Shown: positions 9,810 through 28,109 of the stretch, piece by piece
Layout: each line of letters starts with the position of its first letter
Position numbering within the stretch: the first letter of the stretch is position 1
Source of the DNA: Candidatus Saccharimonadota bacterium
Lineage (GTDB): Bacteria; Patescibacteriota; Gracilibacteria; UBA1369; 2-02-FULL-48-14
Direction: 5' to 3'
DNA: 32,000 nt
Assembly: GCA_965230905.1 (NCBI GenBank)
Contig: OZ246396.1
Span: 240,001-272,000, forward strand
Translations under genes and position numbers: made by a program
The notes under the pieces: generated by a model
What the model was told of the DNA's origin: nothing
The model's input: the letters and a program-made list of their open reading frames with translations, nothing else
Databases searched by the model: none

Positions 9810-11042
9810 ATGCAAAACCGTAACTATTCCCTCTGGGTTCTCTACGACTTCGCTAACTCGCTTGCGTTTGTAAACGTTTCTTTTTATTTCAGTCTTTGGC
9901 TGGTTTCCGACCACGGATTCTCAGATTTTTGGGTGAGCATTGCTACGGTCGCTTCCACGGTTTTGTTGCTTTTGACTTTGCCTTTTTTGAGTCATTTTTC
10001 GGATAGGACAGGTAAAAGGATCCTCTTCTTAAGGGTTTTCACCCTTCTTTCCATTTTGAGTTTGGGCATATTGGGTTGGTTGGCCATGAAGTTCCCCTTC
10101 ACCACTACACTTGGATTTACCGTGCTGCTCTTTTACTTCTTTTTTCAACTTTTTTTTCAAGGAAGTTTTTCTTTTTACAATGCATTCATTCAAGACTTTA
10201 CGGCTAAAAAAACAGCTGACCAAGTCTCTGGGATGGGAATGGGCTTCGGACAATTGGGGAACATGATTGGGATTTTGCTAGTTCTGCCCTTGGCAGAAGG
10301 AAGTATGAACTTACTTGGAGAAAGTGGACGTGGAGCCACTTTTTTCGCCTCTGCAGGCTTGTTTTTAATTTTTGCGCTGCCAAGCTTGCTTTTTCTGAAA
10401 GATAAAAGAGCACCGACGCCTTTGACTGAAAGGTTTAATTTTACCGGCAGTTTAAAGAAAGTTTTAAAAACACGTGGAGTACTTGCCTATTTGCTTTCTT
10501 ACTATTTTTTCGCAGACGCCATTTTGACGCTTCAACTTTTTGTAGGCCTTTATTTAGAAGAAGTCGCTGGCATGGACGACCGACAAAAAACACTGACCAT
10601 GGTGGTAGCCCTGATTTGTGGATGTCTAGGTGCTTGGCTGGCCCCTGCTTTTGCGCGCTGGATTAAAAGCAGTTACCGAGCGATTAAGTATTTAATACTT
10701 AGCTGGGCTATTTTACTGGGGCTGTTTAGTATGGCGGTTGCGCCGCTCTTTTTCTCTGTGCTCATCGTGCTAAATGGATTTGCTTTTGGTGCGCTTTTTG
10801 CACTTTCGCGTTCGTATTATTCTGAAATTACTCCTAAAGAGAGCCAGGCTGAGTATTTCAGCATTTATGTACTTTTTGAACGAGCTGCCTCCATTTTAGG
10901 ACCTTTAGTTTGGAGCAGCACGGTGCTTGTTTTTGCCAGCCATGGCGGAGATAAATATCGTTTTGCCATGTTTTCGCTCGCCATATTAGTTGCTATTAGT
11001 TTTGGGATTTTTCTCAAGGTTCCTAAAGACAAAACTTTATGA
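9810..11042 (+). CDS. MFS transporter (UMF1/Atg22-like subfamily by N-terminal motif)
   Basis: 410 aa with about 12 hydrophobic segments. The N-terminus WVLYDFANSLAFVNVSFYFSLWL is typical of this MFS subgroup. Its stop overlaps the start of the next gene (ATGA). Confidence 0.8.
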   Translation: MQNRNYSLWVLYDFANSLAFVNVSFYFSLWLVSDHGFSDFWVSIATVASTVLLLLTLPFLSHFSDRTGKRILFLRVFTLLSILSLGILGWLAMKFPFTTTLGFTVLLFYFFFQLFFQGSFSFYNAFIQDFTAKKTADQVSGMGMGFGQLGNMIGILLVLPLAEGSMNLLGESGRGATFFASAGLFLIFALPSLLFLKDKRAPTPLTERFNFTGSLKKVLKTRGVLAYLLSYYFFADAILTLQLFVGLYLEEVAGMDDRQKTLTMVVALICGCLGAWLAPAFARWIKSSYRAIKYLILSWAILLGLFSMAVAPLFFSVLIVLNGFAFGALFALSRSYYSEITPKESQAEYFSIYVLFERAASILGPLVWSSTVLVFASHGGDKYRFAMFSLAILVAISFGIFLKVPKDKTL

Positions 11043-12613
11043 AAAGCTGCATAAATTGCCAAAGCTCCTTCACCATTCGACCCGAAGATGAAGTTTTTTA
11101 TGGACGCATGGATGTTCCCGCACCGACTCACTGCCCCGCGTGCCGTGCACAACGGCGTTGGGCCTTTCGCAATCAATACAATCTCTACAAACGAACCTGT
11201 GACTTTAGTGGAAAAGAAATGCTCTCGCTTTATTCGCCGGACAAGCCATTGAAGGTTTATGAGGAATCGGTCTGGTGGAGCGACGCCTGGGATCCGCTGG
11301 ACTATGGACGAGACTATGACTTCTCGCGTCCATTTTTTGATCAATATAAAGAGCTGTTCTGGGCGGTTCCGCGCCATGCCATGCACCAGGATGGGACCAA
11401 TGAAAATTGCGATTATATAACGTATGGCGGCGGTAACAAAAGTTGCTACTTGGCCTTTGCGTGTATTTATAGTGAGGATATTTATTTCAGTAGTTTTTTG
11501 CTTTTCTGCAAAGACAGCTTGGACTCCACGCGCTGCATTGAAAGTTCACTTTTGTACGAATGCGTGGACTGTGAAAAATCGTATGAATGTTTTTTCTGCA
11601 AAGATTGTATCTCGTGCCAAGATTCGCTTTTCCTCGATGACTGCCGGAATTGTAAAAACTGTATCGGCTGTAAAAATTTGCGAAATAAGGAATATCACAT
11701 TTTTAATGAACCCGTTTCCAAGGAGGAATTTGAACGGGTGAAGGCGGAGATTTTAAAAGATGGCGGCCGGAGCTTTAAAGAGAAGTTTGATGCCTGGCGG
11801 CTGACGCAGCCTTACGTGTATGCACGCATAAACAACTCCGAAAATTGCGTGGGAAATTATTTGGAGAATGCGCACAATTCCTACCATTCTTTCGACTTGG
11901 TTATGGGTGCGGATGACTGCAACTATTGTATAAACGCGGGGTGGAAAGGAAAAGACATGTGGGACTGCACCATGACCGGGAAAGAGGCGGAACTTTTGTA
12001 TGAAATGCACGCCACGGTGAATACTCAACACTCTGCTTTTTGTAGTTTTATTCGCAGTTGCTCAGACATTTATTACTGCGACAGTATGGATGCGGCGCAG
12101 AATTGTTTTGGTTCCATCGGACTTCGCCATAAACAGTACTGCATCTTAAACAAGCAATATTCGAAGGAGGCGTATGAAGCGCTGCTACCCCGAATCATTG
12201 AACATATGAAGGCAACAGGTGAGTGGGGCGAGTTTCCGCCGATTTGGCTTTCGCCTTTTGCGTACAATGAGACCTTGGCGAATGAACATTTTCCTCTGAC
12301 TAAGGAGGCTGCTTTGGCGAAGGGCTATACGTGGAAAGACGAAGCAGTGACCGCAGTTGAGGGCGGCTGCAAAAGCTGTGGAAGAGCCTACAAAGTCATT
12401 CCGCAGGAAAAGGCCTTTTATGGACGTATGGGATTGCCGGAGCCTGAGAATTGCTGGAAATGCCGGCACGAACGGCGGTTCCGTAGCCGAAACCCTTATC
12501 GCTTGTGGAAGAGGAATTGCCACAAGTGTCAAAAGGAAATCGAAACCAGCTATTCCCCCGAGAGGCCGGAAATTGTATATTGTGAAACCTGTTATTTAGC
12601 AGACGTCTACTGA
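11039..12613 (+). CDS. Cys-rich paralog P1 (uncharacterised family: terminal double zinc-ribbon-like modules flanking two CxxC-repeat blocks)
   Basis: 524 aa. N-module: CINCQSSFTIRPEDEVFYGRMDVPAPTHCPACRAQRR. Central motifs: CFGSIGLRHKQYCILNKQYSKEAYEAL and TGEWGEFPP. The C-terminus ends CETCYLADVY-stop. Confidence 0.9.
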   Translation: MKSCINCQSSFTIRPEDEVFYGRMDVPAPTHCPACRAQRRWAFRNQYNLYKRTCDFSGKEMLSLYSPDKPLKVYEESVWWSDAWDPLDYGRDYDFSRPFFDQYKELFWAVPRHAMHQDGTNENCDYITYGGGNKSCYLAFACIYSEDIYFSSFLLFCKDSLDSTRCIESSLLYECVDCEKSYECFFCKDCISCQDSLFLDDCRNCKNCIGCKNLRNKEYHIFNEPVSKEEFERVKAEILKDGGRSFKEKFDAWRLTQPYVYARINNSENCVGNYLENAHNSYHSFDLVMGADDCNYCINAGWKGKDMWDCTMTGKEAELLYEMHATVNTQHSAFCSFIRSCSDIYYCDSMDAAQNCFGSIGLRHKQYCILNKQYSKEAYEALLPRIIEHMKATGEWGEFPPIWLSPFAYNETLANEHFPLTKEAALAKGYTWKDEAVTAVEGGCKSCGRAYKVIPQEKAFYGRMGLPEPENCWKCRHERRFRSRNPYRLWKRNCHKCQKEIETSYSPERPEIVYCETCYLADVY

Positions 12614-14244
12614 TGCCAAACTGTAAAAACTGCCAAAGCAATTTCTCTCTGGAAGAAGCGGATTTTGAATTTTTGAAAAAGTTTGATGTGCCGGCCCCTA
12701 CGTTCTGCCCCGATTGCCGGAATCAACGGCGGCTGGTTTTCCGAAATGACCGAAATTTTTATCGGCGGGAATGTGGGATGTGTAAAAAAGTCATCATTGC
12801 GATCTTTTCGGAGGACAAACCTTTCCCTGTGTACTGCAAGGACTGTTATTTGAGTGACGCTTTCGATCCGCTGCAATACGGCGTGGATTTTGACCCTTCA
12901 CGGCCGTTTATTGAGCAATTTGCAGAGATGCGTGCGCGGGTGCCGCGAGTGGCGAGCTTTCAAACACAGAGCGAAAATTCCGACTACACCGTGCACAGCG
13001 GCAAGAATAAAAACTGCTACATGGGCAGCTCGTACATGGAGTGTGAAAATTCTTATTACAGCCATTGGCTTTTTTATGCGAAAGACTGTCTGGACCTGTA
13101 TTTGTGCCAAAAAATGGAGCGCTGTTATTTCTGTACGAGCTGTGATGATTGCTACGGCTCCGCGTATTTGGAAAATTGCCAGGGTGTATCCTTTTCGTAT
13201 TTAAGTTTTGACTGTCGGAACTCGTCGCAACTGATCGGCTGCGTGGGACTGAGGCAAAAGACTCATCAGATTTTGAACCAATCTGCGAGCGAGGAGGAGC
13301 TTGCGAGCACACTTAAAAAACTCAACACGGACCCGGCTTTTCGCGCCGAATTTCAAAGAAAATATGATGAGCTTCGTTTGCAAGTGCCTGTGCCAGAAAT
13401 GTGGGTTAAGAACAGCGAAAATGTAAGTGGAAATTACATCACGAATTGCCGCAATGCTCAGCATTCATACAATGTGCGTGAGCTTGAAGACGCTCGTCAC
13501 GTTTACGAAGTTGGCCATTTGAAAGATGGAATGGATGTGACTCACTGCGCCAATGGTGAGTTCATTTATGAGGTGAAGGCGGTGATCGATTTGAGCTTCA
13601 GTAAGTTCTGTAATTTGTGTTACCAAAGCAGTCAGCTTGAATACTGCGACAACTGCCAATCCACGAAAAATTGTTTTGGCAGTATGGGGCTGAAGGGGCA
13701 TTCCTATTGCATTTTGAATAAGCAATACAGCAAGGAGGCTTACGAAAGTCTGCGCGCGCAGATCATTGAAAAAATGCGAGCAACTGGCGAGTATGGCGAG
13801 TTTTTTCCTGCAGCGCTGAGCCCTTTTGGCTACAACGAAACCAAGGCTATGGATCACTATGAACTCACGCGCGAAGAAGCCCTGGCTAAAGGCTTTAAGT
13901 GGAAGGACGAAGATCCCCGTTCATATCAGCCGCAGACCGCAGTACTTGCCGACGACATTGCAGCCGTACCCGACAGCATCACGAATGAAATTTTGGCGTG
14001 TAGCGAGTGCCGAAAGAATTTCAAAATAATCCCCCAGGAGTTGAAACTTTATCGTGAGCTCGGCGTGCCGGTGCCAAAAAAGTGTTTCGGTTGTCGACAT
14101 AAGGAAAGAAAGTCCCTCCAAAATCCTCGTAAGCTGTGGAATCGAGAGTGCGCGCAGTGTAAGGCCGCCATTGTTACGACTTATGGACCTGAGAAAAAAG
14201 AAAGGGTTTTTTGTGAGAAGTGTTATTTAGCTGCGATTTATTGA
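12613..14244 (+). CDS. Cys-rich paralog P2
   Basis: 543 aa, 35 Cys by my hand count. The start overlaps the P1 stop (TGATG). All four ribbon-like CxxC...CxxC sets are intact. Confidence 0.9.
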   Translation: MPNCKNCQSNFSLEEADFEFLKKFDVPAPTFCPDCRNQRRLVFRNDRNFYRRECGMCKKVIIAIFSEDKPFPVYCKDCYLSDAFDPLQYGVDFDPSRPFIEQFAEMRARVPRVASFQTQSENSDYTVHSGKNKNCYMGSSYMECENSYYSHWLFYAKDCLDLYLCQKMERCYFCTSCDDCYGSAYLENCQGVSFSYLSFDCRNSSQLIGCVGLRQKTHQILNQSASEEELASTLKKLNTDPAFRAEFQRKYDELRLQVPVPEMWVKNSENVSGNYITNCRNAQHSYNVRELEDARHVYEVGHLKDGMDVTHCANGEFIYEVKAVIDLSFSKFCNLCYQSSQLEYCDNCQSTKNCFGSMGLKGHSYCILNKQYSKEAYESLRAQIIEKMRATGEYGEFFPAALSPFGYNETKAMDHYELTREEALAKGFKWKDEDPRSYQPQTAVLADDIAAVPDSITNEILACSECRKNFKIIPQELKLYRELGVPVPKKCFGCRHKERKSLQNPRKLWNRECAQCKAAIVTTYGPEKKERVFCEKCYLAAIY

Positions 14245-15833
14245 TGCCAAATTTAAACCAAAACTGCCGCGTCACCGGGAAACCCTTTGTTATCACGGAA
14301 TGGGAGCAGGCTTTCTTGAAACGCATGGACATGCCCCTGCCCACGCTGTGCCCGGAGGAAAGGCAGCTGAAACGACTGGCGCATCGGAATGAACGTTCGC
14401 TCTACCAAAGGACTTGCGACCACTGTCAAAAAAATATGGTGGCCCTGTACCCAGCGGCAACTCCATTCCCTGTGTACTGCGGAGATTGTTTTTGGGGTGA
14501 TTCCTGGGACGGCGGCGGCTATGGCCAAGGCTATGATTTGAATCGACCTTTTTTTGAACAATTCAAAGAGCTGCTGAATCGCGTACCGCGGGTGGCCGTG
14601 CTGTCACGCAACTCACAAAATAGCGACTACACCAATTGTGAAGAACAAAATAAAAATTGCTACCTCACTTTTGGTGGTGGCTATTCCGAAGACTGCATGT
14701 ACAGCAACTTTGAACTGTACTGCAAAAATTGCGTGGACTGCTCGTACGTGCACAAGTGTGAACTTTGCTACGAATGCATGGACCTCGAGAATTGTTACCA
14801 TTGTTTTTATCTTACTGATTCCAAAAACTGCAGTGATTGTTTTTTGGGGAATGACTTGATCGGCTGTCACGATTGTTTCGGCTGCAAAGGTTTAAGGAAT
14901 AAGAATTTTTATATTTTTAACGAGCCTTATTCGGAAGAAGCCTATAAGAAGAAAGTGGCGGAGCTTTTACCAAAGATTCAAGATGCAGACGTGCAAGCCC
15001 GTTTTCAAGAACTGGTGCGAACCGTGCCGACTAAATTTGCGCAAATAAACAACTGCGAAAACAGCACGGGTGGATACCTATCCAACAGTCAAAATTGCCA
15101 GTGGTGCTTTGACGCGAAGAATGGGAAAGATTCGATGTATGTCACGTTTGGGGAAAGTTTTAAAGATGTGCTCGACTGCAACGTGAGTTACGTGGGGACC
15201 GAGCTGGTTTATAATTCTCAAAGCGTGTGTCTCAGTGCTTCGTTTGTACGCTGTTGTAATTTTTCATGGACCATAAGTTTTTCCGACTATTCTGATTCCT
15301 GTCACTACTCGAAGAATTTGTTTGGCTGCATTGGGCTGAAACATAAAGAGTACTGCATCCTCAACAAACAATATTCAAAGGAAGACTATGAAGCTTTAGC
15401 CGCGCAAATCATTGAAAAAATGAGGGCGGCTGGCGAGTGGGGCGAGTTTTTTCCTTTCTCTCCTTTTGCCTACAATGAGACCATTGCTCAAGAATATTTT
15501 CCGCTCACGCGTGAGGAAGCGGCCCGGCGTGGGTACGGATGGAAAGAAGAAAATTCCATCAATAATGCCACTGGAGAAGCGGGCACCTGTAAGCAGTGCA
15601 GCAAGGTATATCGCATCATCCCGCAGGAGAAAGCTTTCTATGAAAAGACGGGTCTGACTTCCCCACTGTTTTGCTACAATTGTCGCCACAAAAACCGTAT
15701 CAAACATCGTAATCCACCTTTCTTGTGGACGCGAGCCTGTGCGGAATGCAAAACACCGGTGGCGAGCAACTACCGTCCTGAACGGCCAGAGAAGATTGTG
15801 TGTGAGAAGTGTTATTTGGCTTCGGTTTATTGA
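14244..15833 (+). CDS. Cys-rich paralog P3
   Basis: 529 aa from the ATG at 14244, which overlaps the P2 stop (TGATG). The ORF track's 14220 start would add 8 unconserved residues. Confidence 0.88.
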   Translation: MPNLNQNCRVTGKPFVITEWEQAFLKRMDMPLPTLCPEERQLKRLAHRNERSLYQRTCDHCQKNMVALYPAATPFPVYCGDCFWGDSWDGGGYGQGYDLNRPFFEQFKELLNRVPRVAVLSRNSQNSDYTNCEEQNKNCYLTFGGGYSEDCMYSNFELYCKNCVDCSYVHKCELCYECMDLENCYHCFYLTDSKNCSDCFLGNDLIGCHDCFGCKGLRNKNFYIFNEPYSEEAYKKKVAELLPKIQDADVQARFQELVRTVPTKFAQINNCENSTGGYLSNSQNCQWCFDAKNGKDSMYVTFGESFKDVLDCNVSYVGTELVYNSQSVCLSASFVRCCNFSWTISFSDYSDSCHYSKNLFGCIGLKHKEYCILNKQYSKEDYEALAAQIIEKMRAAGEWGEFFPFSPFAYNETIAQEYFPLTREEAARRGYGWKEENSINNATGEAGTCKQCSKVYRIIPQEKAFYEKTGLTSPLFCYNCRHKNRIKHRNPPFLWTRACAECKTPVASNYRPERPEKIVCEKCYLASVY

Positions 15834-15873: not shown

Positions 15874-15924
15874 GAAGTCGCGTCGCAAAGGGGTTGGTCC
15901 CGCGCCATGCGGCTTCATTTTTTA
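15874..15924 (+). terminator. Intrinsic terminator candidate after P3
   Basis: The outer stem pairs GAAGUCGC (15874-15881) with GCGGCUUC (15909-15916) and includes one U-G wobble. Inner CGC/GCG and GGG/CCC pairs follow, then A plus six U (15918-15923). The U-tract exists only on the + strand. Confidence 0.5.
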
Positions 15925-16512: not shown

Positions 16513-18183
16513 GTGACAAGCTGTAAGCAGTGCCAGAAAACATTCGAAGTTGCTCCTGAAGACCTCGCCTTTTATGATGAAATTTCTCCTAGTTTTGACG
16601 GCAGGAACTTTGCCATACCCACGCCCACAAAATGCTTCTATTGCCGGTTTCAGCAACGCCTCGCTTTCCGAAATGAGCGGAGCCTTTACCATCGCAAGTG
16701 TGATTTGAGCGGCAAGATGATTATTTCCAACTATGCGCCCGATAAACCCTATAAAGTTTACGAGCAAAGCGAATGGTGGAGCGATAAATGGGATGCGCTG
16801 AGTTACGGGCGGGACTTTGATTTCAATCGAAGTTTTACAGATCAATATAAGGAACTTTTGGAGGCAGTGCCGCATTCAGCGCTCACTACTCGGAATGCGG
16901 AAAATAGTGCCTACAGCAACTTTGCACTCAATCAAAAAAATACGTATTTGATTTTTGGATCCGGGGGCGCGGAAGACTGTCTGTATGGAAAATACATCGC
17001 GGATTGCAAGGACTGTGTGGACTGTTTGGCGGTTTACAATTGCGAGCTCTGCTATGAAGGAATCGGCAGTGAACGTTGCTACAACTGTCGCTACTTTATG
17101 AACTCACGCAATTGCACGGATTGCCTCATGATAGACAACTGCCAGTCGTGCAAAAATTGCATCGCCTGTTTTGGGCTGGTGTCCAAAGAATACTGCATTC
17201 TCAATCAATACGTTGGCAAAGAGCAATTCGAGGCGTTCCAAAAAGAATATGAATATTTAACTCCTGAAAAATTGGCGACTTTGCGGGAAAAACTCGACGA
17301 CTTGAAGGCCACTTTACCCCACCGCGAGGCACGGATTTTTGCGGGTGAGAATTGCAGTGGAGACAATGTTTACAACTCAAAAAACTGCCAGACTTGCTTC
17401 GACATTAAGGAGTGTGAAGACTGCAAATACACCAATTTCAGCCCCAAAAATAAGCGCAGCTACGACATCACGTTTAGCGCGCCCGGCGATGTAGAATTTT
17501 GTAATCAAATGTGCTCGACCACCAGTGTGCAGAAGTGCATGGCGGGCTTTTTAGTTTGGTTTGGAGGCAACATTTATTACTCCGAAGAATGTCACAATTG
17601 CAGCGATTGTTTTGGATGCACCGGACTGAAGGGCAAAAAATACTGCATCCTCAATAAGCAGTACACCGCGGAGGAATATCCAAAAATGGTGGCACGCATT
17701 ATTGAACACATGCAAAAGACCGGCGAGTGGGGCGAGTTTTTGGACTACAAACTTTCCATGTTCGGTTATAACGAAACCGTGGCGCAGGAATACTATCCAC
17801 TCAGCAAGGAGCAGGCCTTGGCCCAAGGAATGAACTGGTACGACAAACCCGTGGAGCGTTTGGAGGGCACCGTGATCAGCCAAATTCCCAAGGACATTCG
17901 CACTGTGGACGACACTATTTTAGAAAAAGTGCTCACCGGCGAAGTGCTTGGGCGCCAGTACAAAATCATTCCTCAGGAACTGACATTTTACCGCCGCATG
18001 AAAGTTCCGCTCCCCCGCCGTCACCCGGACATTCGCCATGCCGACCGAGTTGCTCTTCACAATCCCTATGTGCTTTTTGACCGCAGCTGCAGCAAGTGTA
18101 GTAAGGCCATTCAGACGACTTATAGCGAGGAGCGGGCAAAGATTGTATACTGCGAGAAGTGTTATCTTGAAACTGTTTATTAA
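16513..18183 (+). CDS. Cys-rich paralog P4 (GTG start)
   Basis: 556 aa. An AAAGG SD sequence precedes the GTG. The N-terminus MTSCKQCQKTFEVAPEDLAFY aligns with the other paralogs. Confidence 0.88.
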   Translation: MTSCKQCQKTFEVAPEDLAFYDEISPSFDGRNFAIPTPTKCFYCRFQQRLAFRNERSLYHRKCDLSGKMIISNYAPDKPYKVYEQSEWWSDKWDALSYGRDFDFNRSFTDQYKELLEAVPHSALTTRNAENSAYSNFALNQKNTYLIFGSGGAEDCLYGKYIADCKDCVDCLAVYNCELCYEGIGSERCYNCRYFMNSRNCTDCLMIDNCQSCKNCIACFGLVSKEYCILNQYVGKEQFEAFQKEYEYLTPEKLATLREKLDDLKATLPHREARIFAGENCSGDNVYNSKNCQTCFDIKECEDCKYTNFSPKNKRSYDITFSAPGDVEFCNQMCSTTSVQKCMAGFLVWFGGNIYYSEECHNCSDCFGCTGLKGKKYCILNKQYTAEEYPKMVARIIEHMQKTGEWGEFLDYKLSMFGYNETVAQEYYPLSKEQALAQGMNWYDKPVERLEGTVISQIPKDIRTVDDTILEKVLTGEVLGRQYKIIPQELTFYRRMKVPLPRRHPDIRHADRVALHNPYVLFDRSCSKCSKAIQTTYSEERAKIVYCEKCYLETVY

Positions 18184-18184
18184 A

Positions 18185-19795
18185 ATGAAACAAAGCTGTA
18201 AGAATTGCGCGCAAGACTTTGAAATAGCAGATTGGGATCTTCAACTCCTCGATCAAATTTCCCCCGTTTTTCAGGGTAAAAAGTTCAGTATTCCTGCGCC
18301 GGTACTGTGCCCAGGCTGCCGTCAGCAACGTCGCATGGCTTACCGCAATGAACGGAGCCTTTATAAACGTGACTGTGGCAAATGTAAGAAGCCCATGCTG
18401 TCCGTTTATTCAGAAGATAAGCCCTTCACTCTTTATTGCCGCGACTGTTGGTGGTCTGACGAGTGGAATGGCACAGATTTTACACAGGAGTTTGACTTCA
18501 ACCGACCTTTTGCTGAACAGTTTTATGAGTTGATGAAGAAAGTCCCCCAGCTTGGAATTGTGAATGCGGTGGATCAAAACAGTGACTACACCAATTATGG
18601 GTATCAAAACAAAGACTGTTATTTGATCTTCACTTCTGACTTCAATGAGAAATGTTCCTATGGCTGCTTTGTGTGGCGTTCTTTTGATTGTTATGACAAC
18701 CTATTTTTGCTGGAATCGCAGCTCTGTTACGAGTGCTTGGACTGCGTGAAATGTTATGGCTCAGCGTATTGCCGCGAGAGTGAAAGTTTGACGGACTGTT
18801 TTGGCTGCGTGGACTGCCGAAGCTGTGAATCGTGCTTTGGTAGCAGTGGACTTCGAAACAAGAAATACCATTTCTTCAATGAAGCCTTGAGCAAGGAGGA
18901 ATACGAGAAAAAAGTTGCAGAAGCAAAGGCGAACTGGCCCGAGACTTTGCAAAAGTTTAAAGAGGTTGGGAAAGAAACGCCACGCCGGAATTTGTTTTTA
19001 GTGCAATGTGAAAATGTGCTGGGTGACCACTTGAAAAACTGTAAAAATTCTTCCCATTGTTTTGATGGCCAAGAGTTGGAAGAGTGTAAATACATGACCA
19101 ATGCACCTGTTAAGTGTGATCACGACATGGATATTGATGGCGCAGGTTGGTTGTTTTGGTCTTATGAATGCATCAGCACACAGGGAAATCGGCAGCTTTT
19201 TTCCGACCATCATTGGCCAGAAGGATCGGACCTGACCTACTGCTCTTTCTCGATGGGGTCATCCAACTGCTTCGGCTCTGTGGGTGTGAAAAAAGGAAAA
19301 TATTGCATTTTGAACAAGCAGTATTCTAAAGACGACTACGAGGCGCTCATGGTGAAAATAATGGAGCACTTGGTGAAAACTGGGGAATGGGGCAATTGTT
19401 TCTTACCACCGTATTCGCGCTTTGCTTACAACGAAACCGTGGCCCAGCAATATTATCCGCTGACCAAGGAGGCTGCGTTGAAACTCGGTTACCGGTGGCA
19501 TGAAGAAAACGTGGAGAAATACAGTGGAAAAATGGATGACGTGGTGATTTGTGAGGTCAGTGGGAAGGCATTCCGGCTCATTCCCCAGGAGCTGGAGTTC
19601 TACAAAAAACTCGGCCTCCCCTTGCCTAAACGTCACCCAGAAGTGCGCATGAAAGATCGTGAAGCGCTGCGCAATCCACGACAATTTTGGACACGAGGAT
19701 GTGATTCGTGTGGGGTGCAAATGCAATCCACCTATTCGCCGGACCGGCCAGAGAAAGTGTATTGCGAAGCCTGTTATCTTAAAACCGTCTATTGA
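18185..19795 (+). CDS. Cys-rich paralog P5
   Basis: 536 aa from the ATG at 18185, 1 nt after the P4 stop. The N-terminus MKQSCKNCAQDFEI aligns with the family. The ORF-track start at 18038 lies inside P4. Confidence 0.88.
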   Translation: MKQSCKNCAQDFEIADWDLQLLDQISPVFQGKKFSIPAPVLCPGCRQQRRMAYRNERSLYKRDCGKCKKPMLSVYSEDKPFTLYCRDCWWSDEWNGTDFTQEFDFNRPFAEQFYELMKKVPQLGIVNAVDQNSDYTNYGYQNKDCYLIFTSDFNEKCSYGCFVWRSFDCYDNLFLLESQLCYECLDCVKCYGSAYCRESESLTDCFGCVDCRSCESCFGSSGLRNKKYHFFNEALSKEEYEKKVAEAKANWPETLQKFKEVGKETPRRNLFLVQCENVLGDHLKNCKNSSHCFDGQELEECKYMTNAPVKCDHDMDIDGAGWLFWSYECISTQGNRQLFSDHHWPEGSDLTYCSFSMGSSNCFGSVGVKKGKYCILNKQYSKDDYEALMVKIMEHLVKTGEWGNCFLPPYSRFAYNETVAQQYYPLTKEAALKLGYRWHEENVEKYSGKMDDVVICEVSGKAFRLIPQELEFYKKLGLPLPKRHPEVRMKDREALRNPRQFWTRGCDSCGVQMQSTYSPDRPEKVYCEACYLKTVY

Positions 19796-21432
19796 TGTCG
19801 ACCTGTAAACAGTGCAATCGCCCTTACGAAATCACTTCTGAGGATGAGGGTTTTTATAAAAAATTCAGTGCCAGGGATTTGGGTCGTTGCTTTGAATGTA
19901 GCCAGAAAAATCATCTGGCACTTCGCAATGCGCGCTGTTTGTATCACCGAAAATGTGATGCTACCAGTGAGGATACTATTTCTATGTATTCGCCGGATAA
20001 ACCTTACAAAGTCTATAAAAGTGATCACTGGTACAGCGACGCTTGGGATGCCATGGATTATGGACAGGATTTTGACTTTTCTCGGTCTTTTTTTGGACAA
20101 CTCAAGGAGTTACAGCTCAAAGTACCACGCCTGGCTTTGTCCAACATCAACGCCATGAACAGTGACTACTGCAACTCTTCCTATGGAAATAAAAACTGTT
20201 ATTTAATCTTTGGCGGTGACAACAACGAAGATTGCATGTTCGGGACCTTATGTATGAAAAATACACGGTCGCTGGATTTGGACTTCAGCAATTTCAACGA
20301 ACTTTCTTACATGCTTGCTGACTGTTTTCAGTGTTACAACACTCAGTTCGCCATAGACTCCAAGAGTTGTACCGACAGCGCTTTTTTGAGCGATTGTACC
20401 AGTTGTAGTGACTGTATTTTATGCAGCAATTTGGTGAATAAATCCTACTGCATCCTAAATAAGCAGTATTCTAAGGAAGAATATTTCTTAAAAAAAGCTG
20501 AGCTTTTAAATGGGACTTACTCACAACAAAAGCAGTTATTTGACTCATTTAAAGCACTACTCGGCGAGCGCATTGTGAAATATGCCCACACGGTTTCCTG
20601 CCAAAATTGTAGCGGTGATTATATTAAGAACAGCAAGAATTGTACGATGTGCTTCAACGTTACGGACAGCGAAGATTTGAGAAATATTGTTTTTGCGAAT
20701 AAGAGCAAGGATTGTTTCAATTCCAGCATGTTGGGTGACAATAGCGAGTTGGCTTACGAAACGGTTTCCGCTTACCGCGCTTACAATGTTCAATTTTCTT
20801 TTTTTGTGATTGATTCGAGCAATATTGAATACTGTGACGTTGCGATCAATTCAAAAGATTTGTTCGGCTGCGTGGGCATGCGCAATAAGCAGTACTGCAT
20901 TTTTAACAAGCAATATAGTAAGGAAGACTTTGAGTATTTACGCACAAAGATTATTGAACACATGAAGAAGACCGGGGAATGGGGTGAGTTTTTCCCAAAA
21001 ACATTTTCCTGTTTTGCTTACAATGAAACCACGGCAAATGTGTATCAGCCGATGACCAAAGAACGTGCACTTGCCGAAGGCTATACGTGGAAGGATGAAG
21101 ACCACAAAAAAGTCCATATTCCGTCCTCACCACTTCCAGATAAAATTGAAGACGTTTCTGATTCTATTTTAAAAGAGATTCTTTTATGTGAGGGGTGCCA
21201 AAAAAATTATCGCATCATTTCACAAGAGCTACAGTTTTATAGAGCCCAGCGGCTTCCCATCCCTCACTTGTGTTCAGAATGTCGACAAGGAGTTCGCAAA
21301 GATCTCCTCAACCCTAGACAACTTTGGCAGCGCCCATGCGACTCCTGTGGAAGCTCTATGCAAACCACCTATTCGCCCAAGCGACCCGAAAAAGTGTATT
21401 GTGAAGCCTGTTATCTTAAAACAGTCTACTGA
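19795..21432 (+). CDS. Cys-rich paralog P6
   Basis: 545 aa. The ATG at 19795 overlaps the P5 stop (TGATG). Confidence 0.88.
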   Translation: MSTCKQCNRPYEITSEDEGFYKKFSARDLGRCFECSQKNHLALRNARCLYHRKCDATSEDTISMYSPDKPYKVYKSDHWYSDAWDAMDYGQDFDFSRSFFGQLKELQLKVPRLALSNINAMNSDYCNSSYGNKNCYLIFGGDNNEDCMFGTLCMKNTRSLDLDFSNFNELSYMLADCFQCYNTQFAIDSKSCTDSAFLSDCTSCSDCILCSNLVNKSYCILNKQYSKEEYFLKKAELLNGTYSQQKQLFDSFKALLGERIVKYAHTVSCQNCSGDYIKNSKNCTMCFNVTDSEDLRNIVFANKSKDCFNSSMLGDNSELAYETVSAYRAYNVQFSFFVIDSSNIEYCDVAINSKDLFGCVGMRNKQYCIFNKQYSKEDFEYLRTKIIEHMKKTGEWGEFFPKTFSCFAYNETTANVYQPMTKERALAEGYTWKDEDHKKVHIPSSPLPDKIEDVSDSILKEILLCEGCQKNYRIISQELQFYRAQRLPIPHLCSECRQGVRKDLLNPRQLWQRPCDSCGSSMQTTYSPKRPEKVYCEACYLKTVY

Positions 21433-23051
21433 TGAACGCTTGTAAGCAATGCCAAAAACCGTTTGAAGTGACCGAGGTGGAACGAGAATTTTTGAAGAAA
21501 GTGGCGCCTACCGTGGGTGGACGTCAGTTTGAAATTCCCGAGCCTAAACTGTGCCCGGATTGCCGACGACAACGACGTTACGCGCAACGGAATGACCGAA
21601 ATATTTACCGCCGAACCTGTGACAAAACTGGGAAGTCCATTATCTCGGCGCATCACCCCGATAAACCCTTCCCCGTCTACGCCATTGATGTGTGGTGGAG
21701 CGATGCCTATGACCCTAAAGCCTACGGGCGTGACTTTGATTTTAGCCGGACTTTTTTTGAGCAGTTTAAAGAGCTTTCTTATACAGTTCCGCGGGCGGCT
21801 TCCATTGTGGTGGCTTCTGAAAATTGTGATTACACCATCTTCACCCTGCAGAGCCGGAACTGTTTTCTTTCGTCTCGTTTGGCGGAGGTAGAAGATATTT
21901 ATTATTCCTACCTCGCTTTTAAAAGCCGTTCCTGTTTTGACGGCTACAATTTGATGGAATGTGAACTGTGCTACGAGTGCGTGGACTGTGGGAAATGCTA
22001 CCAATGTATGTACACCACCAGTTCAAAAGGCTCCTTCAACTTGATGTTCTGCAGCGACATGTCTGGTTCCAATAATTGTTTTGGATGCGTGGGGATGGTT
22101 CAAAAACAATACTGCTTTTTCAATCAACAACTCAGCAAAGAAGAGTACGAAAAACGCGTGAAGGAATGCTTCGATGGCTCTCACGAAAGTGTGCTGCGCT
22201 GCCAAGCGGCGTTTGCCGAACATAGCAAAAAATTCCCTGTACGAGCAACGCAAGTTTTCAACTCTGATAATGCACAAGGCAGCCACATATTTGAGAGCAA
22301 AAACGTCATCAACTCCTACGATATCGCCGGCTCGGAAGATATCATCAATTGCACTCAAACTGAAACGAGCAAAGACATGATGGACTGTGACTTCACCTAC
22401 GTCTGCGAGCTCTCTTACGAGCTTATTTCAGGAGGGAAAAGCATGCGGAATTTGTTTTCTTTCTCGCTGGTGGGAAACAACAACGACGTCATGTATTCGC
22501 ACTATTGCAATAATGGGAATCAGAATTTGTTTGGATGCGTGGGCATGAAAAACAGCAAATATTGCATCTTTAACAAGCAGTACACCAAAGAGGAATACGA
22601 AGAACTCGTGCCACGAATCATTGAGCACATGCAGAAGACAGGCGAGTGGGGTGAGGGGATACCCATTGAACTTTCTACCATGTCTTATAACGAAAGTGCT
22701 GCGCAAGAACGATTTCCCCTGACTAAAGAAGAAGTGCTGGCTCGCGGATGGACTTGGTACGACGCGCCCGAAAGCACGGTGGCGCAGGCCGAAGGCGAGA
22801 ATGTGGTTCACTGTGAAGTAAGCGGCAAATCTTTCCGTCTCATCCCACAGGAATTGAAGTTTTACAAAGACATGGGCCTGCCCTTGCCCACGCGTCACCC
22901 CGATGTCCGCCACCAGGATCGTTTAAATCGCCGCACGCCCTACCAATTGCATGAAACCAAGTGTCGCAAGTGTGGAGAGGACATGATGACCGACCAAAGC
23001 GAAAACAAGCTTATTTACTGCCAGAAGTGTTATTTGGCAGAGACTTACTGA
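21432..23051 (+). CDS. Cys-rich paralog P7
   Basis: 539 aa. The ATG overlaps the P6 stop (TGATG). Confidence 0.9.
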   Translation: MNACKQCQKPFEVTEVEREFLKKVAPTVGGRQFEIPEPKLCPDCRRQRRYAQRNDRNIYRRTCDKTGKSIISAHHPDKPFPVYAIDVWWSDAYDPKAYGRDFDFSRTFFEQFKELSYTVPRAASIVVASENCDYTIFTLQSRNCFLSSRLAEVEDIYYSYLAFKSRSCFDGYNLMECELCYECVDCGKCYQCMYTTSSKGSFNLMFCSDMSGSNNCFGCVGMVQKQYCFFNQQLSKEEYEKRVKECFDGSHESVLRCQAAFAEHSKKFPVRATQVFNSDNAQGSHIFESKNVINSYDIAGSEDIINCTQTETSKDMMDCDFTYVCELSYELISGGKSMRNLFSFSLVGNNNDVMYSHYCNNGNQNLFGCVGMKNSKYCIFNKQYTKEEYEELVPRIIEHMQKTGEWGEGIPIELSTMSYNESAAQERFPLTKEEVLARGWTWYDAPESTVAQAEGENVVHCEVSGKSFRLIPQELKFYKDMGLPLPTRHPDVRHQDRLNRRTPYQLHETKCRKCGEDMMTDQSENKLIYCQKCYLAETY

Positions 23052-23930: not shown

Positions 23931-25616
23931 ATGACCAATTGCAAACACTGCCAAACCAGCTTTGAGATCCGTCCAGAGGATTTGGCCTTTTACGACGAGA
24001 TGTCTCCGGTTTTTGGCGGGAAAAAGTTTGCGATTCCGGCGCCTACGCTCTGTCCCGATTGCCGCTGGCAACGACGTATGAGTTTCCGAAATGAACGCAC
24101 GCTGTATTTGCGAAAATGTGACCTCACCGGAAAGTCCATGGTGAGTATGCATCCCGCTGGCACCCCCTTCCCCGTTTACAGCATTACCGAGTGGCTGAGC
24201 GATAAGTGGGAACCTCTAGACTTCGGCCGTGACTTCGATTTCAATCGGCCCTTCTTCGATCAATTCAAAGAGATGTGTGAGCAAATCCCGCATTTTAGTT
24301 TGTTTGTGGACCCCCACTTGGACATCAACTCCGACTACACCAACTGCTCGAACAGTGCGAAAAATTGTTATCTCATTTCGCAGGCGGAAGTGAATGAGGA
24401 TTGTTATTACTCCAGAGGAATCAACCGTTCCAAAGATTGTGGAGACTGTTTGCGCATTCATCAATGTGAGCTCTGCTACGAATGCACCAGTATGATGGGC
24501 TGTTACCACTGTCTCTATTCGCAAGAATGTGAAACCTCCTCGGATTGTTACTTTTCCAGCGACTTAAAGAGCTGCCAAAATTGTTTCGGCTCTCATGATT
24601 TGATTCAAAAACAGTATTATTGGTTCAACCAGCCCCTCGGCAAAGAAGCGTGGGAGAAACGTATGAAAGAATTTGTATGGAGCCGCGAAAATATCGAATG
24701 GGCCAAGCAAGAAAGTGAAAAATTAAAGCTCTCACTGCCTCGCCGCGCGGTCCACACCACTCAGTGTGAAAATTCCTCTGGTGACCACATCATGCAATGT
24801 AAGAATTCTCACCTAGTTTTTGATTCTTTGTATTTGGAAGATTCTGCTTATTGTTACGAAGTTTTCAACGGCGCCAAAAAGGCCTACGACTACTCCATGT
24901 GGGGCGTGAATGCGGAATTTATTTACGAGTGTAACGGGTGTGGATTCAATGTAAACAACCTGCTCTTTTCAAATCACTGTTGGCAAAACGTGAGCAATTT
25001 AATTTACTGCGAAAGCTCTTTCCCGAGCGTAAAAGATTGTTTTGGATGCTTTGGTTTGAAGCGCAAACAGTACTGTATTTTGAATAAGCAATATAGCAAA
25101 GAGGAGTATGAGGCTTTGGTGCCACGAATCATTGAACATATGCAAAAGACGGGCGAGTGGGGTGAGTTCTTCCCTGCTAGTATTTCTCCTTATGGCTACA
25201 ATGAATCCCTCGCAGCCTCCTTCTTTCCACTCAGCAAAGAAGAGGTTTTAAAGCGCGGTTGGAATTGGTATGAAAAAGAAGAAGCAATCGACCAATATAT
25301 TGGCCCCAACGTGAAAATTCCAAACAGTATTCAGGAAGTTGACGACGCTATTTGCAGCCAAATTTTAAAATGTGAAAAGACCGGAAAACTTTACAAAATC
25401 ATTCCCCAAGAATTGAAGTTGTATCGAACTTTGGGAGTTCCCCTGCCTACGCTTTGCCCCGAAGAAAGACACCAGGCCAGAATGACGGCGCGTAATCCAC
25501 GACATTTGTGGGAACGTACCTGTCAAAACTGTCAGAAAGGCGTTCAGAGTTCCTACTCGCCCGAAAGGCCTGAGAAAGTCTTTTGTGAGGAATGTTATTT
25601 AAAAACGGTTTACTAG
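23931..25616 (+). CDS. Cys-rich paralog P8
   Basis: 561 aa. The N-terminus is MTNCKHCQTSFEIRPEDLAFY, and the C-terminus ends CEECYLKTVY-stop. Confidence 0.9.
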   Translation: MTNCKHCQTSFEIRPEDLAFYDEMSPVFGGKKFAIPAPTLCPDCRWQRRMSFRNERTLYLRKCDLTGKSMVSMHPAGTPFPVYSITEWLSDKWEPLDFGRDFDFNRPFFDQFKEMCEQIPHFSLFVDPHLDINSDYTNCSNSAKNCYLISQAEVNEDCYYSRGINRSKDCGDCLRIHQCELCYECTSMMGCYHCLYSQECETSSDCYFSSDLKSCQNCFGSHDLIQKQYYWFNQPLGKEAWEKRMKEFVWSRENIEWAKQESEKLKLSLPRRAVHTTQCENSSGDHIMQCKNSHLVFDSLYLEDSAYCYEVFNGAKKAYDYSMWGVNAEFIYECNGCGFNVNNLLFSNHCWQNVSNLIYCESSFPSVKDCFGCFGLKRKQYCILNKQYSKEEYEALVPRIIEHMQKTGEWGEFFPASISPYGYNESLAASFFPLSKEEVLKRGWNWYEKEEAIDQYIGPNVKIPNSIQEVDDAICSQILKCEKTGKLYKIIPQELKLYRTLGVPLPTLCPEERHQARMTARNPRHLWERTCQNCQKGVQSSYSPERPEKVFCEECYLKTVY

Positions 25617-26368
25617 ATCCTGTCCCACATCCAGTTGAATAAAGTGAGCAAGGATTGATGGAGATGTTTTTCACGAATTTTAATGCCCACTTCATTCTTA
25701 GGGTCGTAACTATTAAAAATTACGTAGTCGTTTACCAAAATCACATCTGAGAAAAAGAGGGCGGAACTTTCCATCTCTTTGATCTGGTGGTTTGGATTGT
25801 TCACATGACTTTTGTACCAATCGGTCATAGGGCCAGCGACTAGAATTTCACGGATCTGTACCTTGGTATTGGACGTTGATTTTAAAAAGTTTTTGACCAG
25901 ATTTTTATAACGTTCCGTTTTGATGGCGAGCTGGGGATTGAAAAAAGAAGTGAAGTCCCCACTCAGCAAAGTCTCTTCCAATTGGAGGTACACGGCCTCC
26001 ATGGATTCAAACGTGGAAATTTCAAAAGCTCCAAAGTCCTGAGTTTTCGGAAGGAGCTGCTTAAGGTGAGTTTGTAAAAGTTGCGTCGCACTTTGAACAT
26101 CTTCGAATTGCTCACGAGCGTGGGCTTCCAAAATTTTGGCCGTCATATCGGGGGCCAAACAACTGAAGTAGGTCACTGAGCCGCGTTTTTTACGAGCTAC
26201 GATTCCCAGATGGACGAGCGTATCCAAAGCGGCGTATACCGTGGTGCGTTTGAGGTGCAATTGTTTAGCCAGCACGCTGGCGATGCTCTCTCCACGCTCA
26301 AATAAATGGAGGAAAACGGCTTGTTCCGTGGCATTGAGTCCGCAGGTTTGGAGGAGGTTTTCGAGCAT
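25613..26368 (-). CDS. TrmB-family transcriptional regulator, second copy
   Basis: The HTH segment is LNATEQAVFLHLFERGESIASVLAKQLHLKRTTVYAALDTLVHLGIV. I prefer the ATG at 26368 over 26413 for three reasons. MLENLLQTCGL aligns with MLKEKLQEFGL of the first copy. An AAGG SD sequence lies upstream. A good minus-strand promoter sits where the longer ORF would begin. Confidence 0.75.
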   Translation of the reverse strand: MLENLLQTCGLNATEQAVFLHLFERGESIASVLAKQLHLKRTTVYAALDTLVHLGIVARKKRGSVTYFSCLAPDMTAKILEAHAREQFEDVQSATQLLQTHLKQLLPKTQDFGAFEISTFESMEAVYLQLEETLLSGDFTSFFNPQLAIKTERYKNLVKNFLKSTSNTKVQIREILVAGPMTDWYKSHVNNPNHQIKEMESSALFFSDVILVNDYVIFNSYDPKNEVGIKIREKHLHQSLLTLFNWMWDRI

Positions 26369-26372
26369 TTGC

Positions 26373-26432
26373 GCCTTGTTGTCAATTAAATTTTGACAGT
26401 ATAAGTTTAGCATTTTCAGGTTAAATTTGCAA
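26373..26432. promoter_or_regulatory. Shared GCNTTGTTGT motif in an inverted repeat, plus a candidate minus-strand promoter for the second TrmB-like gene
   Basis: GCCTTGTTGT at 26373-26382. Inverted repeat TGTCAA (26380-85)-N7-TTGACA (26393-98). On the minus strand: TTGCAA (26432-26427), 17-nt spacer, TAAACT (26409-26404). Confidence 0.45.
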
Positions 26433-26498: not shown

Positions 26499-28109
26499 AT
26501 GGAAACCCTTCAAACGGCCTGCGCACACTGCCAAAAGAATTTCGAACTCGATGCACAGGATCAAGCGTTCTATAAGGAAATCAACGTCCCCCACCCCACC
26601 CAGTGCCCGGATTGCCGTGAACAGCGCCGGCTCGCGTGGCGAAATGAACGCACACTCTACTTAAGGAAATGCGACCTCACGGGTGAACCCACGCTTTCCG
26701 TTTTTTCAGAGGACAAGCCTTATAAGGTTTATAAAAATGACCATTGGTATTCCGATAAATGGAATCCGCTGGATTACGGGCAGGACTTCGATTTTTCTCG
26801 GCCTTTCTTTGAACAGTTTGATGAGCTTTTACATAAGGTCCCGCAGCTCGCGCTTTCCACGACCGGGAACCAGAATTCCGATTTCATCAACCAAGCGGGA
26901 TGGTGCAAGGATTGCTATTTGATCTTTGAGGCTGATTTCAATGAAAAGTGTATGTACTCGACCCACATTGGAGATTCCAGAGACTGCATGGACGGCCTTC
27001 AAGTGATGAAGTCAGAACTTTGTTACGAGTGCATCGATTGTCAAAATGGCTACAACCTGCGTTTTGCTCAGGATTCCATGAATTGTTCGGATTCTTGGTT
27101 CTTAAAAAACTGTATCGGGTGTTCGAATTGTTTTGGTTGTGTGAATCTACGGAATCAAAAGTTCTGCATTTATAATGAACAGTACTCACAGGAAGATTAT
27201 TTTAAAAAATTGGCTAGTTTTGATCTGCAAAATCGCACCGGCCTAGAAAAGATGCGGGACGATTTCACCGCCTACGCCGCCCAATTTCCTCACAAAAATT
27301 ACCATGGCGTGCAGACGGAAAATTGCAAGGGTGACTACTTATACAACTCGCAAAATTGCCACGGTTGTTTTGACGTGAGCAATTCGCAGGATTGCAAATT
27401 TGTAACCGATTCGCGTAACTGTAAGAAGGTTTACGATATGACGGTTTTCGGTGCCCAAAAGGGAGTGGAGTTTTGCTACGAGTGTCATGAAGTTGGACAC
27501 GGCGTACGGAATTTATACTTCTGTGATCAGGTTTGGGACAGCTGTTATGAGCTATACTACACCAAGCTCAGCATGCAAAATTGTCACCATTTGTTTGGAT
27601 GTATTGGTTTCCGCCGCGGCTCGTATTGTATTTTGAATAAGCAGTACACAAAGGAGGAATATGAAGCCTTGGTGCCGCGCATTATTGAGCACATGAAAAA
27701 GACCGGCGAGTGGGGTGAATTCTTCCCTATCAGCATGAGTCCGTTTGCCTACAATGAAACCCTTGCGGAGCAGTATTTTCCACTCGGAAAAGAAAAGGCG
27801 GAGGCCCTGGGATACGGGTGGAAAGAAGAAGCTAAAACGCCCATAGTACCGGGCCTGCCAGCCTGTGATACGTGCGGAAAAAACTACAAAATTGTGAGCC
27901 AAGAAGAAGAATTTTACCAAAAGATGAAACTGCCGCATCCTACGAGTTGTTCTGAATGCAGACACAAGAAGCGCTCGGCGCTGCGAAATCCACGAAAACT
28001 CTGGGACCGGGCGTGTGCACAGTGCTCTACAGCTATTCAAACCAGCTATTCGCCGGAACGGAGCGAAAAAGTCCTTTGTGAAGCGTGTTATCTGAAAGAG
28101 ACTTACTAA
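26499..28109 (+). CDS. Cys-rich paralog P9
   Basis: 536 aa from the ATG at 26499 (METLQTACAHCQ...). The upstream ATG at 26460 would add 13 residues absent from all the other paralogs and lies upstream of the predicted -10, but it cannot be excluded. Confidence 0.85.
   Translation: METLQTACAHCQKNFELDAQDQAFYKEINVPHPTQCPDCREQRRLAWRNERTLYLRKCDLTGEPTLSVFSEDKPYKVYKNDHWYSDKWNPLDYGQDFDFSRPFFEQFDELLHKVPQLALSTTGNQNSDFINQAGWCKDCYLIFEADFNEKCMYSTHIGDSRDCMDGLQVMKSELCYECIDCQNGYNLRFAQDSMNCSDSWFLKNCIGCSNCFGCVNLRNQKFCIYNEQYSQEDYFKKLASFDLQNRTGLEKMRDDFTAYAAQFPHKNYHGVQTENCKGDYLYNSQNCHGCFDVSNSQDCKFVTDSRNCKKVYDMTVFGAQKGVEFCYECHEVGHGVRNLYFCDQVWDSCYELYYTKLSMQNCHHLFGCIGFRRGSYCILNKQYTKEEYEALVPRIIEHMKKTGEWGEFFPISMSPFAYNETLAEQYFPLGKEKAEALGYGWKEEAKTPIVPGLPACDTCGKNYKIVSQEEEFYQKMKLPHPTSCSECRHKKRSALRNPRKLWDRACAQCSTAIQTSYSPERSEKVLCEACYLKETY

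Follow-up and report, generated by a model that had tools for sequence, protein, structure and literature searches.

The closest described counterparts of the proteins considered here are two Pfam families of 'probable treble clef' zinc domains, PF13451 (zf_Tbcl) and PF23477 (zf_Tbcl_2), neither of which has a known function; they match, for the most part weakly, fingers 1 and 3 and fingers 2 and 4, respectively, of a family of cysteine-rich proteins with up to four predicted zinc fingers. The core of the same proteins can be compared with the beetle antifreeze protein TmAFP, a secreted beta-helix with 12-residue coils (repeat TCTxSxxCxxAx), intra-coil disulfides between cysteines six residues apart and a Thr-x-Thr ice-binding face. 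Nine members of the family are encoded in a 32,000 nucleotide stretch of Candidatus Saccharimonadota bacterium (assembly GCA_965230905.1, contig OZ246396.1, positions 240,001 to 272,000 of the forward strand), referred to here in its entirety as the window. The second of the nine, P2, is the main subject of this analysis. An initial annotation of P2, made from the sequence, had proposed that it is built as an A-B-B'-A' arrangement of internal duplications. Patescibacteria, the bacteria of the Candidate Phyla Radiation (CPR), include many that live attached to host cells.

Internal duplications in P2

P2 is soluble according to sequence analysis, without a signal peptide or transmembrane segment, and neither feature was found when looked for in the paralogs. 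The nine paralogs P1-P9 (524-561 aa) are in tandem on the + strand, with pairwise identities of 36-46%. They are mildly acidic (pI 5.8-6.6) and have a cysteine content of 5.8-7.6%. A hypothetical protein from a metagenome-assembled genome (MAG) at NCBI, AAB383_04405 (Patescibacteria group bacterium), is 100% identical to P2. The parts of the gene and protein are as follows.

12613..14244, + strand: P2, complete open reading frame (ORF), 543 aa plus stop
12613..12867, + strand: module A, residues 1-85, two predicted treble-clef zinc fingers
12886..13329, + strand: unit B, residues 92-239, with a lead-in helix, an acidic solenoid, a G-C-x-G-L..K...I-x-N cap and an exit helix
12967..13275, + strand: predicted solenoid of B, residues 119-221, about eight rungs of 12 residues
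13330..13770, + strand: unit B', residues 240-386, tandem copy of B
13438..13704, + strand: predicted solenoid of B', residues 276-364, about 7.5 rungs of 12 residues
13771..13995, + strand: segment X, residues 387-461, unique and acidic, between B' and A'
13996..14241, + strand: module A', residues 462-543, copy of A, ending in Tyr543

The order in P2 is therefore A(1-85)-B(92-239)-B'(240-386)-X(387-461)-A'(462-543). Slices of a family alignment of 102 sequences were compared as profiles using hhalign. Module A (3-81) aligns with A' (462-540) over 77 ungapped columns (probability 99.8%, E=2.7e-30), and B (92-239) aligns with B' (240-386) over 147 columns with one gap (probability 99.9%, E=3.4e-36). 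These results bear out the proposal that the two end modules are homologous and that the cysteine-repeat blocks between them come from a second, inner duplication. Single-sequence BLASTP, the type of self-alignment that had been suggested as a check, recovers both A/A' and B/B' within all nine window paralogs, with E-values of 5e-6 to 2e-23 and 2e-5 to 8e-19, respectively.

The biased composition of the proteins (5.8-7.6% Cys) and the weak off-register self-matches seen at E about 1e-3 could be taken to mean that the repeats are an artefact of cysteine-rich, low-complexity sequence. This is ruled out by the shuffled controls and by the near-gap-free alignments, and the idea can be given practically no credence. 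Thirty column-shuffled profiles of identical composition score at most 16.5 for A/A' and 23.3 for B/B', which is 7 to 10 times below the real scores of 152 and 229.5, and the 77 and 147 aligned columns include many motifs that do not involve cysteine. The pseudo-symmetric nested architecture described in the initial annotation is thus upheld by profile statistics, shuffle controls and single-sequence comparison, and both it and its origin by nested duplication can be regarded as very well supported.

B' begins at residue 240, directly after the end of B at 239, so in the inner event a unit of ~148 residues was simply duplicated in tandem. Both units end in the cap motif G-(C/S)-x-G-L..K...I-x-N, as had been claimed; the two strings quoted for P2 were located, IGCVGLRQKTHQILNQSASEEE at residues 208-229 and CFGSMGLKGHSYCILNKQYSKEAYE at 354-378, and are aligned to each other by hhalign. 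There are fewer cysteines in B' than in B, and its cap is more conserved (FGCxGLKxxxYCILNKQY). This cap and the first part of X (GEWGEFFP..SPFGYNET..PL.KEEA..G..W) belong to the best-conserved parts of the family, while the last ~30 residues of X are a variable linker. No homology between X and the inter-unit helices was detectable by profile comparison. Since the unique segment X lies only between B' and A', the connectivity of the chain is not symmetric.

Zinc fingers of the end modules

All the residues and motifs cited in the initial annotation were located, and the eight N-terminal ligands of P2 had been placed correctly. In module A these are C4, C7, C32 and C35 (Zn1) and C54, C57, C75 and C78 (Zn2, CxxC-x17-CxxC), with a basic helix, R36-R52, between the two fingers. 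The corresponding ligands of A' are C463, C466, C491 and C494 (Zn1') and C513, C516, C534 and C537 (Zn2'), and this module has a net charge of about +6. P2 had been chosen as the reference because its ligand sets are all intact, and it is indeed the only one of the nine window paralogs to have four complete CxxC...CxxC sets.

In profile comparisons, finger 3 is the counterpart of finger 1 (E=2.9e-21) and finger 4 that of finger 2 (E=3.6e-16), whereas the comparison of finger 1 with finger 2 is at noise level, with no detectable relationship. The two fingers of a module were therefore duplicated together. In the AlphaFold2 (AF2) model of full-length P2 (predicted local distance difference test, pLDDT, 85.3; predicted template modelling score, pTM, 0.83), the first CxxC pair of each finger lies between short strands and a helix is found at each second pair: 33-41 at C32/C35, 76-80 at C75/C78, 492-501 at C491/C494 and 535-542 at C534/C537. 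The predicted geometry, with the first pair in a knuckle and the second at the start of a helix, is that of a treble clef. The modules had earlier been called zinc-ribbon-like. They are double zinc modules, as this implied, but the AF2 model and weak Pfam matches point to treble-clef fingers rather than classical zinc ribbons.

For PF13451 (gathering threshold 24 bits) P9 passes with 31.8 bits, and P7 and P2 fall short with 18.5 and 13.8 bits. For PF23477 (gathering threshold 27 bits) 7 of the 9 paralogs match over their final ~35 residues, at 15.6-22.3 bits, and none reaches the threshold. The x17 spacing of the PF23477 type is present between C513/C516 and C534/C537. These weak matches fall where they would be expected, at fingers 1 and 3 for PF13451 and fingers 2 and 4 for PF23477. 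About 20 of 120 homologs carry a precomputed PF13451 annotation and a few have been named 'zinc-ribbon domain containing protein' by NCBI.

Ligand covariation, ligand retention and terminal residues were counted in 266 copies from loci L001-L078 plus the window. The ligands of each site covary as units (phi 0.83-1.0) and vanish as units. The outermost sites are retained: about 91% of copies keep A-Zn1 and about 100% keep A'-Zn2. The inner sites A-Zn2 (intact in 38%) and A'-Zn1 (about 50%) are lost in 50-62% of copies; these losses are correlated (phi 0.40), and the two sites are not homologous to each other.

The C-terminal tyrosine had been described as invariant, and this is true of all nine window copies but not of the family, where it is found in 183 of 266. 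In P2 it is Tyr543, six residues past the last cysteine, exactly as Trp84 is in module A, where this position is W in 241 of 266 copies. Given this equal spacing, the terminal tyrosine is probably the same structural aromatic, and thus probably a structural residue of module A' and not a free signal.

Cysteine-lined solenoids

Cysteine frequency along B and B' has positive autocorrelation only at multiples of 3. Coevolution was analysed by mean-field direct coupling analysis (DCA) of 515 non-identical full-length sequences over 545 columns (effective number of sequences, Neff, 498). Of the top 250 DCA pairs, 46 are at a separation of exactly 12, and every one of these is inside residues 119-221 or 276-364. 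The mean DCA score at this separation reaches 0.72 for B and 0.54 for B', as against about 0.03 at non-periodic separations, and there are minor peaks at 6, 9, 11 and 24. Each unit is therefore read as about eight rungs of 12 residues stacked into a solenoid, with C-[YF]-x-[CS]-x-x-[CS]-x-x-[CSA]-[KE]-[DN] as the rung consensus. Phases 0, 3, 6 and 9, which would point inward, are 60-91% small residues with almost nothing charged or aromatic, and the outward phases 4, 5, 7 and 8 are the most variable. Foldseek comparison with the PDB returned only beta-solenoids, none significant.

The initial annotation had raised the possibility that the cysteine repeats form a solenoid with metal sites. The separation-12 couplings support the solenoid but not fixed metal sites. 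Storage of metal or a redox role, with the cores binding metal chains or Fe-S clusters or forming disulfides, would be in keeping with the 10-14 cysteines per solenoid, of which the inward register holds 97% in B and 92% in B', with the motifs CxxCxxCxxC and CxxCxxCxxCxxC, with a frequency of inward cysteine far beyond what packing alone requires and with the lower AF2 confidence in the solenoids. However, the cysteine positions are 5-90% conserved and are freely exchanged with Ser, Ala, Val or Gly. Covariation in the presence of cysteine is weak, with phi at most 0.52 compared to 0.83-1.0 for the zinc ligands. Cysteines at i and i+6, across the coil from one another, are anticorrelated (phi -0.18), and the count is even in 48-52% of proteins, giving no preference for even or odd. 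On these grounds fixed metal sites and disulfides in the solenoid are not supported. A core that binds metal loosely is conceivable, but a metal or redox function as a whole is very unlikely. The pattern of substitution fits steric packing of the core by the cysteines, rather than disulfide pairs or fixed four-cysteine sites.

Coevolution between the domains

Several couplings link parts of P2 that are distant in sequence. Residues 93-98, at the start of B, are coupled with 383-391, in the helix that follows B', and homologous positions of the two units couple with one another (139-153 with 291-312, separations about 147-160), which is the signature of a putative two-fold interface between B and B'. 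Module A (13-40) couples with B' (295-345) and X (396-431), and A' (473-503) couples with B (148-185) and with residues 241-254, including the pair F173-R499. Among the top 300 DCA pairs there are 11 between A and B' versus 4 between A and B, and 8 between A' and B versus 2 between A' and B' (binomial p=0.007). Pairs that correspond to each other under the symmetry score higher than random (p=1.2e-4). Direct packing of A on A' is not supported by DCA.

These couplings suggest that B and B' may be packed side by side in the manner of a homodimer, with each end module docked on the solenoid that is not its own, A on B' plus X and A' on B. Conserved arginines of the modules would be paired with acidic residues of the core, and the variable positions would be left on the outward rung faces. 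Such a compact pseudo-two-fold particle, as read from sequence covariation, is considered fairly probable.

The basic stretch after the first finger had been thought suitable for contact with nucleic acid. Its conserved residues (R36, R39, R40, R44 and N45) instead appear to pair with acidic residues of B' and X (coevolving pairs R39-E320, R36-D308 and R39-E396), and because of this coevolution an intramolecular role is likelier than the one first suggested. It would still be conceivable for the two basic zinc modules to clamp DNA or RNA, with the solenoids as a spacer or a DNA mimic. Treble-clef fingers often bind nucleic acids. The mean net charge of A' is +6, with Arg495, Arg499 and Arg511 nearly invariant, and a neighbouring ATPase, described below, belongs to a DNA-translocase superfamily. 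The acidic solenoids and their insignificant Foldseek matches to EfsQnr and AlbG also recall DNA mimics. Weighed against this are the coevolution of the basic residues with acidic residues of X and the solenoid, suggestive of buried intramolecular contacts, the acidity of the whole protein (pI 5.8-6.6), the lack of one or two fingers in half of the family and the failure of Pfam, NCBIfam and PDB profile searches to match any known nucleic-acid-binding family. Binding of nucleic acid is therefore regarded as unlikely.

Distribution of the family

A profile search of 1.84 billion representative sequences identified 2,461 clusters (50% identity) at E<=1e-30, and the best 150 of the 2,461 are all full length. 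Loci were collected from species-representative genomes, 78 in total, and all are from Patescibacteria except for one MAG labelled Pseudomonadota and three labelled 'bacterium'. The family thus seems to be restricted to Patescibacteria, where the groups with loci include Peribacteria, Gracilibacteria, Abawacabacteria and Paceibacteria. The 78 loci contain 319 copies, in same-strand arrays with up to 12 per 20 kb, and the identity has a floor near 40% across distant CPR classes. No half or single-module proteins were found among the non-family ORFs of these loci. In one homolog of 731 aa, P0245, a GNAT acetyltransferase domain precedes the complete family architecture, which may be either a real fusion or a gene-calling merge.

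A phage or viral origin was rejected: tblastn against 50,697 phage records gave no match, and IMG/VR contigs carried no relative. Scans of the family against Pfam, NCBIfam, PADLOC and PHROGs gave nothing significant beyond the weak treble-clef matches, and a profile search of the PDB gave only an insignificant match to a LIM finger. With regard to defence systems, PADLOC gave only ZorC for P2 (E=0.005) and none for P9, and membership of such a system was not found. The family was not found in literature searches on PF13451, PF23477 and DUF8128 or on CPR bacteria in connection with cysteine-rich proteins, treble clefs and beta-helices. The cysteine-rich proteins of Peribacter riflensis were considered and rejected as the same family, as those are 580-3860 aa long, mostly pappalysin-like and for the most part predicted to be exported.

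The gene array and its neighbours

The other paralogs of the window, and the neighbouring genes that recur at other loci, are listed below.

11039..12613, + strand: P1, stop overlapping the start of P2 (TGATG)
14244..15833, + strand: P3, start overlapping the stop of P2 (TGATG)
16513-18183, + strand: P4, first of P4-P7, which are tightly packed or overlapping over 16513..23051
18185-19795, + strand: P5
19795-21432, + strand: P6
21432-23051, + strand: P7
23045..23803, - strand: TrmB-family helix-turn-helix regulator inside the array (Pfam PF01978, E=2.8e-15)
23931..25616, + strand: P8, divergent from the TrmB-like gene at 23045-23803
25613..26413, - strand: second TrmB-family regulator (Pfam)
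26499..28109, + strand: P9, with an alternative ATG at 26460, divergent from the TrmB-like gene at 25613-26413
28359..30602, + strand: VirD4/TrwB-like P-loop ATPase, 747 aa (Pfam PF10412, PF02534, PF12696), downstream of P9

One-base stop/start overlaps of the form TGATG are present at four junctions (12610-12615, 14241-14246, 19792-19797 and 21429-21434) and connect P1-P2-P3 and P5-P6-P7. They suggest translational coupling and the co-expression of several paralogs; because consecutive copies are joined in this way, it appears that several are produced together and not singly.

Other genes are also found in and around the array. A gene for an MFS/Atg22-like transporter (MFS, major facilitator superfamily; 9810-11042, + strand) overlaps the start of P1 by ATGA, and the first sub-operon therefore looks like MFS-P1-P2-P3. 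A NYN-domain gene (a predicted RNase; 15915-16391, - strand) is within the array, divergent from P4, and was not seen among the neighbour clusters that recur at other loci. Upstream, at 1797-6931, are housekeeping genes for the beta and alpha chains of serine dehydratase and for a two-subunit 2-oxoacid:ferredoxin oxidoreductase, without evident link to the array.

TrmB-like genes are present in 30 of 79 loci, with 38 of 40 on the opposite strand and at a median distance of 119 bp. In L003 (3580-4218, - strand) and three further loci, genes of ~190 aa that by eye resemble those of ORF6N/KilA-N-type DNA-binding proteins are interspersed in the arrays (10 members). Together with the TrmB genes, this suggests that many small regulators are embedded in the arrays.

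The window ATPase has intact Walker motifs and is soluble, with no transmembrane segment by hydropathy. Homologs of ~747 aa are found in 20 loci, co-directional with the family gene in 24 of 25 cases and at a median of 63 bp from it, and the ATPase is present in 19 of the 50 loci of at least 15 kb. The layout of TrmB (-), paralog (+) and ATPase (+) is seen both in the window (25613-30602) and in the independently fetched locus L081 (9149-14002), where the ATPase carries DUF8128. The window ATPase also matches phrog_5156 (E=1.7e-66), to which no function is assigned, and it matches PADLOC mad8 at 1.3e-11, which reads as a shared P-loop ATPase core.

Genes like this are common in the group: 5,713 VirD4-like genes were counted in 2,918 genomes of Patescibacteria, just 148 of these genes lying near virB4, and there are about two type IV coupling protein (T4CP) homologs per genome, mostly distant from virB4 (PMC12102498). 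The authors of that study suggested that VirD4-like genes may have been exapted for another function.

The adjacent, co-directional ATPase raises the question of whether the copies are secreted effectors, recognised through their basic C-terminal module and exported into host cells by a type IV secretion system (T4SS). The paralogs are diversified, and their C-terminal module, which is rich in Arg and carries positive charge, has a conserved terminus. An analogy can be drawn with the bep effectors of Bartonella, whose genes likewise form tandem arrays of diversified paralogs next to a VirD4-type ATPase and whose C-termini are also positively charged; the P2 family, unlike these, has no BID domain, and its neighbouring ATPase is soluble and orphan. 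The T4SS of Patescibacteria itself seems to be specialised for a role other than conjugation, with substrates that are not described in the paper (PMC12102498). However, the ATPase has no transmembrane anchor and there are no recurrent T4SS structural genes across the 78 loci. As well as T4CP genes being mostly far from virB4, the t4cp homolog of Ca. Southlakia epibionticum ML1 is not essential for epibiotic growth (PMC12102498). The scaffold is strongly conserved across distant CPR classes, unlike fast-evolving effectors, and compact zinc-stabilised folds would be poor substrates for translocation. Secreted effectors are accordingly an improbable explanation, a little more so than nucleic-acid binding.

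Possible function of the family

The reading that is preferred here begins with a 12-residue rung bearing an inward small residue, mostly cysteine, at every third position. Multiplied about eight times, such a rung would give a narrow acidic beta-solenoid. The unit of ~148 residues, made up of helix, solenoid, Gly/Asn cap and helix, would then have been duplicated in tandem to give B-B', and the two-finger treble-clef module duplicated whole to place one copy at each end, A and A'. That P2 is a soluble zinc-stabilised scaffold generated by at least three levels of duplication, with the packing and function suggested here, is judged to be just on the probable side.

With regard to function, the arrays may encode rigid, diversified binding scaffolds that carry a zinc cap at either end and are expressed together as a repertoire. 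Their variable outward rung faces would bind proteins or other cytoplasmic ligands. The scaffolds could act with the adjacent soluble VirD4-like ATPase as its adaptors or clients, with expression under TrmB-type regulators. This proposal for the function is tentative. Further still from what can be expected is that the family is the client set of the thousands of orphan soluble VirD4-like ATPases of Patescibacteria, which would load, remodel or export the copies, possibly into host cells; this is thought unlikely, but if true the repertoire of ATPase clients would be central to the epibiotic lifestyle of the Patescibacteria.

Several observations weigh against the preferred reading. The palindromic domain order cannot come from a single duplication, and the evolutionary route to it is a reconstruction. 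An AF2 model of B-B' in isolation has a lower confidence (pLDDT 75) and a different strand pattern. For the packing, Neff is about 500 for 545 columns and the inter-domain scores are modest, the preference of A' for B is gone past the top 300 pairs and that of A for B' is noise by the top 1000, and the inter-domain contacts might be intermolecular. About 60% of the loci examined lack the ATPase. Copies adjacent to it do not form a distinct orthologous group (39.2% vs 39.0% identity), and a subfamily of ATPase-specific partners was rejected on this basis. Lastly, no homolog with a known function was found in family libraries, the PDB or the literature searched.

This is one of the large paralog expansions in the very small Patescibacteria genomes (~1 Mb), with the nine copies here taking up about 15 kb, and the core of the family has no Pfam model. 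P2 is a clear case of a pseudo-symmetric protein that arose by nested, not simple tandem, duplication. The domain boundaries, zinc sites, rung consensus and conserved and variable faces make it tractable for structural and biochemical work. Linkage of the arrays to orphan VirD4-like ATPases and to TrmB regulators provides a handle on two features of the CPR that are unexplained.

Comparison with known systems

None of the elements (zinc fingers, beta-solenoids, internal duplication) is new in itself, and it is their combination that appears to be undescribed in the literature searched. What appears to be new is a cytoplasmic, cysteine-lined solenoid of 12-residue rungs, duplicated into a predicted pseudo-dimer with a two-finger module capping each solenoid crosswise, in a large family that is restricted to the CPR and linked to orphan VirD4-like ATPases.

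The left-handed beta-helix proteins GlmU and LpxA and the pentapeptide proteins EfsQnr and AlbG, which gave the top insignificant Foldseek matches, have stacked rungs in common with the P2 family. Their rungs are of 18 or 20 residues compared to 12, and the TM-scores are about 0.1. The best Foldseek match to the hexapeptide class has E 0.07 with a TM-score of about 0.07 and the best to the pentapeptide class has E 0.49. Neither Pfam Hexapep nor Pentapeptide is matched, and the period in P2 is 3/12, not the 5/20 of pentapeptide proteins, so P2 was not placed in either class.

TmAFP, which has no sequence or Foldseek match to the P2 family, shares with the P2 solenoid a 12-residue coil, inward Cys, Ser or Ala at every third position and essentially no hydrophobic core. 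The P2 family differs from it in the anticorrelation of cysteines at i and i+6 and in having neither a signal peptide nor a Thr-x-Thr face.

The LIM domain is also a double finger, and the last finger of the P2 family weakly matches LIM finger 2 of CRP1 (E=0.014, not significant). The fingers of the P2 family are 18 residues apart, not 2, and all their ligands are cysteine. As for zf_Tbcl and zf_Tbcl_2, most copies of the family are below the Pfam thresholds for these fingers. The P2 family is set apart from both by a fixed two-finger module of 80 residues, present twice in each protein and joined to a solenoid core.

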